Assembly: GCA_046861645.1 (NCBI GenBank)
Contig: JBHHUM010000014.1
Span: 1-41,263, forward strand
DNA: 41,263 nucleotides
Direction: 5' to 3'
Origin: Fidelibacterota bacterium
Lineage (GTDB): Bacteria > Fidelibacterota > Marinisomatia > Marinisomatales > UBA2128
A program made the position numbers. Below are positions 18,516 through 21,500 of the stretch, in pieces (within the stretch, counting starts at the first letter, position 1; each line of letters opens with the position of its first letter).

Positions 18516-21500
18516 TGAGCTATCGCCGCAGGAGACGACGTTATCGAAAAGTGCAGAGAAGTCCTGCCAGGCGAAATATTGTCCCCCGTCTTTTACTGCT
18601 AGCGGGGCTTGTTCTGGTCGTTATATTTTTCTTTGGTGATCATGGTGTTTATCGTCTTTATGAGATGAAAAAAGAGAAGGAAAGATTGTTAATTGAAATA
18701 GAGAACTTGAAAAATCAGCAAGGAGAATTAGAAGAAGATCAACAGAAGCTGTCTACAGATTTACCCTATATTGAAAAGCTGGCTCGTGACCTTCACAGGA
18801 TGACGTTGCCAGAAGAAAAAGTGTTTAAAATGTTGCCTAGGCCTGAAGAGTAGCAGAAGCGTAAACTAAAAACCTAGCATAAAATAAACCTGTTCACTAC
18901 CTAGCTTAGATTGAAAAGCTAGCTCAACATCTTTTGGATCACGGGGGAAGGTGTAGATTAGTTCAGAAACTAATGTAGCTCCTGGTTTGATGATACCGAC
19001 ACTATTTTTACTGCGCATGATTTCCAGGTTTCCAGGGTTTCCGTCACGATCCATCAGAGTGAGGAGCATTAAGGCACTCATATCTAAGTTTGACTTACCA
19101 CGGTTTTCAATCTCTACAGAGATAGTAATCGTTTTAGCATTTTTTTCAGCCCTCAACAGACGGATAGCAGCCTGACCGGTAGTTTGGGTCTCTCCCACAC
19201 CTCGGGCAATACGACTTTCCCTGAGAGCTTCAACAGGAATATAGAACTCAGTAGTAGCCTTGATGAACCGGCCCGTTTTATCTTTGGAAAGTTTTGTTAT
19301 ACTGGCTCCAGGAACCAGATCGCCAATGGTTTTGCCATCAGGTTTTTCAAAGATTTCTGTATTTTTAGCTACTTCCGTTACTTGTGAAATTACTGGCTGA
19401 AAAAGAGCTGACAATATCAAGGGGAGAAGCAGCTTAAATTGTTGCATTGCCATTGATGTTTACCAGGTATGCATCGAGATATATATCCACACGCCGGTTG
19501 TTTGCTCTGCCTTCAGCTGTGTCATTTGTGTCAACCGGCCGGAATTCCCCATAGCCTAAGGCAGAAAACTTATCCTCTGTTATTCCTGCAAAACGGCTTA
19601 AAAGCTTTACGATATTCAATGCCCGAGCACTCGAGAGTTCCCAGTTATCCTTGTATTTCGTTTGCAGTTGTTCGGGAAGGGGAATATTATCCGTATGTCC
19701 TTCACAACGAATCTCGACCCCCAGCGCTTGGTTGCGGCGGTGTAGTGCCCAGAGAAAGTTCTGGTAGGTTGTATCTTTATGGACATTGACAATAGGGGAC
19801 ATTTTGACAATAAATCCTATTTGTGCCACGAGAGCGTGGAAGTCAGTTTTTAGCTCTTCACTGCCCGACTTGAACAATTCACCGCCAATACTGGCCATGG
19901 TGATTTTCACTCCTTTAGTAACTCTTTGGACGGAAACATACGAACTCCCCTGCAGTTGATCATTGAGTTCCTTATAGGTTTGGTCTAAGAGTAAATTGAT
20001 GATACGGTCAATATGTTTCTCGGCATCATTCATAATTACCAACAGCATGATAAAGAATGTCAGCAGAAGAGTAACCATATCTCCATAAGTGACAGCCCAG
20101 GCCGTACTTTTTGCTTTGGCTTCAGTAAATGATATTTTTTCGACCGCGCGGGCCATGGATTATTCCTCGCTTAAACGCTCCCGTTGAGGAACAAAGGTCA
20201 TCAACTTCTCCCGCAGGATAATGGGATGATCCTTGGCATGGATACCAATAATGCCTTCCACCATGATGTCCTTCATCATTAATTCCTCTTCAGATTTGCG
20301 TTTAAGTTTACCAGCCATAGGCAGGAAAATCAGGTTTGAGAAAAGTACACCATAAAAGGTAGTTATAAGGGCCAGTCCCATTCCACCCAAGAGCTCACTG
20401 AACCGCTTAGCTACGTCGAACTCAATAGAGCCGATACCTGTATTACCAGAGCCTGCAAAATTGCTCATCATGATTATGAGTCCCAGAACGGTACCTAACA
20501 AACCAAAGGCTGGAGAATAAGCCCCCATATAAAGGAATATCTCTTGTCCCAAACTGTGCCGACGATTGATGTTTGACATTTCCAGTTCCAGGTAGTTACG
20601 GAGTCGTGATTGGTCACGTTCATTTATGGCCAGTTCAAGTCCGCTATGGAGGAACTTATCATCAATGTTGCTCAGGTCAGCTTCTAGAGACATGATGCCG
20701 GTTTTTCTGGCTTTTTCTGCTTTATCCACTAATTCATTGATGACCTGTTGGTAGCTAAGATCACTTTTTTGGAACACTTGGGCGAGGACTTTAAAGATGC
20801 TCATCACATTCTTAATAGGATAATTAACCAGGGTAGCCGCAAATGTACCTCCCAGTACAATCCCAATAGAACTAGGATCAAGAAACCAGGAAAGATCACC
20901 CTGCTTTCCAAGGATTGATAGGATGATTAAACCGAGACCGATGATAAGACCAAATGCAGTACTTAAATCCATTGTTTTCCTTGAATAGTGTTATACTCCT
21001 AGGAAGCAGTGGAAATTAGTGAGTTTGATCCCTACTGTCCAACACGAAAGTGACAGGTCCATCATTGATAAGCTGGACGTTCATCATAGCGCCGAATTGG
21101 CCTGATTCCACGGGGATTCCTCTATTCTGAATTTGCTTCATAAAATAGTTATAGAGCTTTTCCCCTTTTTCAGGTGCCGCCGCATGTGTGAAACTCGGTC
21201 GCCGACCTTTACGGATATCTGCACATAGAGTAAACTGACTTACGACCAGAGCTGTCCCTCCGATGTCCTGAAGTGAGAGATTCATTTTGTTTTCGTCATC
21301 ACTAAAGATGCGGAGCTCAACTGACTTACGAGCCAAATAGTCTGCATCTGATGTATCATCATTTTGAAAGACTCCTAACAGAATCAGGAGTCCATTCTTT
21401 ATGGAGCCAACCGTGACTCCCTCAATGGTCACAGAAGCTTCTGATACACGTTGCAAGAGAGCAATCATCAGTTGATCCAGACATTTTCATTACCATAGAT

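Follow-up and report, generated by a model that had tools for sequence, protein, structure and literature searches.

The closest described relatives of the motor genes reported here are flagellar stators: the sodium-driven PomAB of Vibrio and MotPS of Bacillus, and the TGI4 flagellar ion transporters (passages of PMC12505986). The genes in question, motA2 and motB2 (together MotAB2) and a third reading frame, ORF3 (g00395), lie in a window of 41,263 nucleotides, contig C31 of G000, a Fidelibacterota genome of the order Marinisomatales. MotAB2 resembles these flagellar units over the full length of MotA, in the rotor-contact Arg/Glu pair, in the Pro and the Thr triad, and in a MotB with its Asp and an OmpA-like domain, but it appears to have no plug-linker, its MotA has an enlarged loop, its OmpA-like domain carries an insert, and no flagellum was found in the genome. 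Two kinds of stator serving one FliG are described for dual-stator motors (MotAB/MotPS in Bacillus, MotAB/MotCD in Pseudomonas); G000 also has two pairs, but these share the sodium signature and are set apart by how their periplasmic parts are built, and their rotor comes without a flagellum.

A parallel for ORF3 is offered by MotK/MotE of Cereibacter sphaeroides (PMC10954123, in part), likewise secreted and encoded next to a stator, with a wall-binding N-terminal domain, an interaction region and MotB binding. MotK, however, is a protein of 652 aa in which AMIN-like and TPR-like parts are recognized, and rotation requires it (same passages), whereas ORF3, SH3b-like plus Ig, has 195 aa and is often absent; we regard the likeness as an analogy. 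In ZorA5B2 (passages of PMC11946911), the wall-binding domain of the B subunit is joined to its membrane helix without a linker, as predicted for MotB2, but MotAB2 has neither a ZorA tail nor effectors, its A subunit is of the flagellar type, and it occupies a housekeeping site. YjhA (3cfu) and YcdA (4r4g), DUF4352/MPT63-like proteins of B. subtilis, resemble ORF3 in fold at identities of at most 18%, although ORF3 differs in having an extra SH3b-like domain and in following a stator. One cultured Fidelibacterota member is non-motile, according to passages of PMC11652737. Among the top matches listed in our searches of openly available papers, supplements aside (those of PMC12505986 may hold such sequences), none deals with a MotAB2 stator, with DUF4352 next to MotB or, for this phylum, with a MotB pair that is Asp-less; Fidelibacterota are unnamed in the available passages of PMC13277936.

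Gene order and build of the stator

The survey's finding of a motA, a motB and a presumably secreted partner holds: the three genes are real, and all are minus-strand reading frames. motA2 (20160..20972, 270 aa; Pfam MotA_ExbB 5.5e-26) encodes a flagellar-class stator A subunit and is followed after 3 nt by motB2 (19434..20156, 240 aa), in which the critical aspartate reported by the survey is indeed intact (Asp26) and whose OmpA-like wall-binding domain carries an insert of about 25 residues. ORF3 (18866..19453, 195 aa) overlaps motB2 by 20 nt and runs tail-to-tail with the plus-strand genes eno (17238..18518; Pfam Enolase) and ftsB (18515..18853; DivIC family, Pfam DivIC 7.9e-15), leaving 12 nt to the ftsB stop. 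Upstream of motA2, on the same strand, lies dtd (21016..21468), a neighbour that varies between families. A promoter and terminator scan gave 8 promoter-like sites against 11.2 in shuffles, and nothing usable.

G000 has three MotA/ExbB genes: motA2, one ExbB, and motA1, which is part of a cassette on contig C129 (three envelope genes, motA1, motB1, a FliF-like gene and fliG). At 34% identity between the two MotA proteins, the pair is distinct from the cassette, as had been claimed. No FlhA was found in G000 (94% complete), nor any flagellar export or hook genes, so that MotAB2 is not a flagellar stator in the strict sense of one with a flagellum in the same genome; when 44 ORFs from relatives' flagellar loci were compared with G000, the matches were the two motAB pairs plus weak FlgD-like pieces. 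Note that the label of a non-flagellated lineage fits this genome and its genus but not the order, where FlhA occurs in 16 of 121 genomes, five of them with MotAB2 and ORF3.

The best family and PDB matches of MotA2 are flagellar MotP, PomA and MotA (MotP at 2e-62). Its Arg89 and Glu97 align, without gaps in that stretch, to Arg90 and Glu98 of E. coli MotA, the FliG-contact pair (passages of PMC12505986). Both residues are kept in 40/40 ORF3-linked MotA2 rows, while in the 12 ORF3-less rows the first position is Arg 11 times and Lys once, the second Glu 11 times and Asp once (a single row rich in unknown residues was dropped from each group); two rows from family f27 have Tyr in place of Arg89. 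Judged by these residues, MotA2 appears to possess the expanded cytoplasmic torque interface by which flagellar ion transporters are recognized (PMC12505986). Pro154 is present, as are Thr161, Thr204 and Thr205, an invariant triad that we mapped by spacing from the conserved Pro and from E. coli A180/T209, rather than by direct alignment to PomA, onto PomA T158/T185/T186, the sodium site that is occupied by alanines in proton stators (PMC10374538, in part). MotA2-MotB2 is probably sodium-coupled, and since MotA1 carries the same Thr triad the two stators probably use the same ion. The periplasmic span between TM3 and TM4 measures 43-47 residues in MotA2, whereas MotA1 has 35 and flagellar MotA of the order 30, an enlargement of the loop by about 14-17 residues. 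A quick tree of the MotA set (SH-aLRT support only) groups MotA2 with the MotA of a sister stator, described below, at a support of 94 and apart from flagellar and cassette MotA.

MotB2 retains Asp26 in 42/42 ORF3-linked rows and in 13/14 ORF3-less rows. From this Asp to the first OmpA-like strand it counts only 55-57 residues (42/42 rows), against 79 in cassette MotB1 and 89-93 in the order's flagellar MotB; positions 43-69 hold Gly or Pro in 0/37 rows, and the monomer model has a single helix from 10 to 67 (pLDDT 82). MotB2 would seem to lack a plug-linker, with a helix predicted to run continuously from the membrane to the wall-binding domain, keeping in mind that this is a monomer model and that a plug may form only in the complex. 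Flagellar ion transporters are defined in part by a plug and a linker that come after the B helix (passages of PMC12505986), which are not seen in MotB2; in PomB, a short linker folds the plug back by ~145 degrees, and plug deletion results in ion leak (PMC10374538, in part). Because MotB in its opened state is proposed to adopt a parallel coiled coil (PMC5647336, in part), MotB2 may resemble a permanently opened MotB. The OmpA-like peptidoglycan-binding domain of flagellar ion transporters is present (Pfam OmpA 4.9e-13; top fold match PomB 3wpw), many MotB2 columns are invariant in 37/37 rows, and the short build also occurs outside the order. Met at MotB Asp+11 is a potassium marker; MotB2 has Met there in 20/42 rows and Leu in 22/42, and we dropped the marker. 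The compact stator, in short, is real and conserved.

The secreted partner and its distribution

An alignment of ORF3, inspected by eye, has a hydrophobic leader ahead of an invariant Gln24, and the protein probably has a signal peptide before that residue. Its model (pLDDT 88) consists of a small beta domain (~24-75), SH3b-like, and a beta-sandwich (~85-195), an Ig domain with the DUF4352 fold. As the survey had noted, the DUF4352 match is only weak (PF11611; 25.7 bits against a cut-off of 25.9), although 35 of 37 ORF3 relatives match at E values up to 1, the best at 1.3e-8. By fold comparison, residues 83-195 superimpose on YjhA 3cfu with a Z of 13.6 (rmsd 2.1, 108 residues), followed by YcdA 4r4g (Z 12.2) and MPT63 1lmi (Z 11.0), and the modelled domain shows the MPT63-like beta-sandwich that marks DUF4352. 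For the N-terminal domain, Atlas features lie at 0.91 to SH3_4 clusters and TM scores at 0.86-0.87 to SH3-bearing clusters; Pfam SH3_3 is weak, matching 3/37 of the set (best 0.022). SH3b domains are wall binders. The Atlas clusters of ORF3 are mostly from Fidelibacterota. Two other likenesses were discarded: a competing match of the ORF3 profile to ribosomal S1 (2.6e-5), which straddles both predicted domains, and one to archaellum ArlF/FlaF (E 0.0098, Z 6.7), which reflects a generic Ig fold. A FliL-type accessory fold is not among the fold matches listed.

Might ORF3 bind the stator? When ORF3 was modelled together with two periplasmic chains of MotB2, the predicted complex scored 0.39 (runs 0.47, 0.28 and 0.39), the best control 0.01, with a contact agreement of at least 72% and a partner pLDDT of at least 85. 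The mark for such complexes is reached by 116/157 solved and 2/215 mismatched pairs, but passing scores below 0.60 are weak and are oftener wrong unless the guess was likely beforehand; the model is thus a weak pointer to MotB2-ORF3 binding. In genus g21 the Ig domain is retained at the end of a 689-705 aa Ig/cadherin/PKD protein from which the SH3b part is gone. With the SH3b-like part exchanged and the Ig domain left in place, the latter would seem to be the end of ORF3 that does the work and is conserved. At the loci with the long form in ORF3's place (L050-L053), MotA2 has 292 aa.

MotAB2 is carried by 62 of the 121 order genomes (61 identified via MotA, one via motB2 and ORF3 at a contig end): 43 of the carriers have the short ORF3, four the long Ig-repeat form and 15 neither. 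Conversely, every one of the 43 genomes with a short ORF3 has MotAB2, and at 42/42 loci with both genes whole or contig-cut ORF3 follows motB2. The reported convergence with eno-ftsB is direct at 33 of these loci; at two a stator is inserted in between, at four the block has moved, and three end at a contig edge. That motB is always followed by the secreted protein does not hold: at 14 of the 15 ORF3-less loci, which are orthologous, ftsB is the immediate neighbour of motB2 (gap -35 to 164 nt) and a six-frame profile search recovers no ORF3 remnant, the fifteenth ending at a contig edge. The 15/15 loci cited by the survey would follow if loci had been picked by ORF3. On the quick MotA tree, ORF3-less rows imply six changes and mostly nest within ORF3-bearing groups, which suggests repeated loss; in G049 the stator is present and ORF3 is broken at a contig end.

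Outside the order, MotB2 occurs in 28 of 137 genomes and a full ORF3 in none of them (0/137); two matches to ORF3 there were rejected, as they cover mainly the N-terminal part and hit Pfam SH3_3, and the stretches read around them hold no mot genes. G114, a single-contig genome, has no MotA and no FliG_C, and its ORF3 beside ftsB has decayed (L255:9761-10250, with several stops and a frameshift). Since all ORF3 genomes have MotAB2 and G114 holds a pseudogene where the stator is gone, ORF3 depends on the stator. The reverse is not the case: ORF3 is confined to one order and missing from 15/62 carriers, and we reject an obligate three-gene unit; what survives of the conserved unit in the survey's finding is a second stator at a housekeeping site.

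Where ORF3 was lost, MotB2 columns are relaxed at 5/16 conserved stalk positions versus 7/86 elsewhere (Fisher p 0.02). We do not count this as support because it is post hoc and kin are not independent, and because MotB2 often has Arg51 outside the order too, in genomes that have no ORF3.

What the stator may drive

We put at roughly 60% the probability that MotAB2 is a compact second stator for the FliF/FliG rotor, with ORF3 as a wall tether. MotA2-MotB2, whose stoichiometry we take to be the 5:2 of its family, would form the second stator unit of the flagellum-free rotor encoded on C129. Ions passing MotB Asp26 would set the MotA ring turning, and this ring would drive that of FliG through its Arg89/Glu97 face. 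With no plug or linker, the wall-binding domain would sit on a short rigid helix, unlike that of the cassette's stator, and gating would be by other means: the loop by which MotA2 is enlarged in the periplasm may serve, or else contact with the wall. ORF3 would be an optional periplasmic adaptor, its Ig domain docking on MotB and its SH3b-like domain holding the wall. Genes, residues, lengths and distribution were observed, and the folds and the weak MotB-ORF3 contact are predictions; for this mechanism we infer the ion, the rotation, FliG as the target and the tethering.

Among the observations that count for a rotor-serving stator are the retained FliG-contact residues, the co-occurrence of MotAB2 with FliG, and G114, which lacks MotA and FliG alike. 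Cassette FliG is found in 57 of the 62 MotAB2 genomes, and in 80 of 121 order genomes overall. Conversely, MotAB2 occurs in only five of the 41 genomes without cassette FliG; three of the five (75-87% complete) hold the cassette's OM/TPR gene, two (G043 and G038) a 513-521 aa FliG-domain protein, one has both, and G113 (66% complete) alone has neither. Outside the order, 26 of the 28 MotAB2 genomes have cassette FliG, found in 85/137 overall, and the other two have FliG_C pieces. The one FliG_C match in G000 falls within the cassette, and cassette FliG has Lys at the positions of E. coli K264 and R281 in 15/15 rows. The 513-521 aa proteins (L121:8387-9928, G043:C7, G038:C26) carry their FliG domains C-terminally and are probably a fused rotor variant; the one at L121 adjoins two OM/TPR-like genes. 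Family f16 has motAB1 without an adjacent fliG.

Other observations count against it. The torque helix of cassette FliG is shortened, with three residues missing at the position of E. coli D288/D289; R297 is absent as well in this alignment, and two f27 MotA2 rows have Tyr at Arg89. The position of motA2 beside ftsB across classes is left without an account, and G049 has a stator with a broken ORF3. We saw no motAB2 adjacent to the cassette; the sister stator lies near it in one genus, eight unrelated genes downstream. Sixteen genomes have the cassette without a compact stator. The nesting of MotAB2 within FliG-bearing genomes is weaker than it looks, because the cassette is common, kin are not independent and the genomes of family f12 are reduced (~1 Mb). 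Finally, the PomA residues that match Arg89/Glu97 also face an intersubunit junction (PMC10374538, in part), so that the pair could be kept for assembly.

The main rival, which we think unlikely, is that MotAB2 works independently of a rotor as an envelope or division motor, either replacing Tol-Pal or acting with FtsB and wall enzymes, ORF3 being its periplasmic effector in this order. Other classes run eno-ftsB-motA2-motB2 on one strand, in several loci followed by an amidase and a glutamate racemase-like gene, and in family f28 motA2 stays right behind ftsB in 4/4 genomes checked even though motB2 is elsewhere. Moreover, both OmpA-domain proteins of G000 are MotB, no Pal was found there, and TolB scores over the cut-off in 0/5 genomes. 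In this order, however, the block faces ftsB and can therefore share no transcript with it, and the block has moved at four f7 loci; MotA2 retains its FliG-contact residues, and loss of FliG goes with loss of MotAB2; G114 and f12 show no MotAB2. A division or envelope role may also be that of the whole rotor. A less probable idea casts MotAB2 as a Zorya-like envelope sensor in which a linkerless MotB catches the wall once the envelope deforms, with ion flow or rotation as the signal. The linkerless joint of ZorB (PMC11946911, in part) is predicted for MotB2 too, residues 15-225 of which are matched by ZorB profiles at 9e-18, and the alignment with 8vvn_B spans 241 columns, but this full-length match is not a fair ranking, since solved MotB entries are mostly fragments. 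MotA2 (270 aa) is tail-less and matches ZorA at 0.0012 against the far stronger MotP score, no ZorC/D/E or other effector genes adjoin MotAB2, and its housekeeping site is conserved. Least probable of all is a leftover or spare flagellar stator with ORF3 as a passenger. FlhA does persist in part of the order, including five MotAB2 genomes, and ORF3 is missing from 15 carriers; yet flagellated relatives keep their own motAB, a separate branch, in the flagellar gene cluster, 57 of the 62 MotAB2 carriers are without FlhA even as so many MotB2 columns stay invariant, and ORF3 was never found without MotAB2.

On balance, a two-stator machine with an optional ORF3, not a stator working alone, is the most likely reading. 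The survey's stand-alone ion motor is less likely given the retained Arg/Glu contact pair and the cassette FliG of most carriers, and its own caveat, that the unit might serve the FliF/FliG cassette, fits better with that co-occurrence and with the G114 loss.

Some further features of these neighbourhoods were recorded. At the f28 loci (L231-L243, L263-L272) motA2 and motB2 lie apart and both look intact, motB2 often after a TPR gene and a large Ig-repeat gene. G000 has one ExbB and two ExbD-like genes, and no full TolB was found in it. The window has, at 35318-37249, an ORF of 643 aa that matches no Pfam family and lies upstream of a block formed by an amidase, a glutamate racemase, a Mur-ligase-family gene and rho; in other classes, an unannotated gene of ~600 aa and a similar block come after motB2.

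Sister stators and other genes

A sister stator (L055:4192-6407, L097-L108, L244-L262), absent from G000, consists of a related motA followed by two short motB genes and occurs in 14 order genomes. Its first MotB has Ser at the Asp position in 14/14 cases and its second MotB has Asp in 13/13; outside the order the first MotB, read from printed motifs in 11 whole copies, has Ser in 10 and Ala in one. The ion-binding Asp is thus missing from the first MotB in all 25 whole copies read, which suggests an asymmetric MotB pair with one Asp. All 28 genomes with a sister stator hold cassette FliG. The site varies: f6 has the unit at eno-ftsB, f13 has it directly behind ORF3, and in one genus of f26 it comes nine genes after fliG.

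We tentatively envisage Fidelibacterota with a flagellum-free rotary envelope machine served by interchangeable stators of three builds: the plugged cassette unit, a plugless wall-armed unit with a swappable adaptor tether, and the one-Asp sister unit. If this is true, nature would have provided, in the sister unit, a way to ask whether a 5:2 motor depends on two aspartates that alternate. A phylum-wide natural stator with a flagellar torque face and no plug-linker would point to another way of gating flagellar-class motors. Should MotAB2 drive the orphan FliF/FliG ring, then a phylum abundant in the ocean maintains a rotary machine with several stators but no flagella, and such a machine would bear on the reuse of the flagellar motor core. 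Taken by itself, the secreted partner adds modestly to this picture, and for one order only.

A further, long-linker motAB type lies behind a response-regulator/HD-domain gene at L113-L115 and is possibly tied to signalling; at L113 a PAS histidine kinase follows it. Elsewhere in the window, a solo Cas6b-family gene (29340-30314) sits between rho and an aminotransferase, with no other cas gene among the window ORFs scanned. At 14574-16988 a polysaccharide flippase is fused to a family 1 glycosyltransferase in one protein of 804 aa; most relatives encode the two separately. Finally, the stretch 4039-7252 holds an exosortase-family gene (4488-5036) and an unannotated neighbour beside a 679 aa protein that bears a Por-type C-terminal sorting domain.
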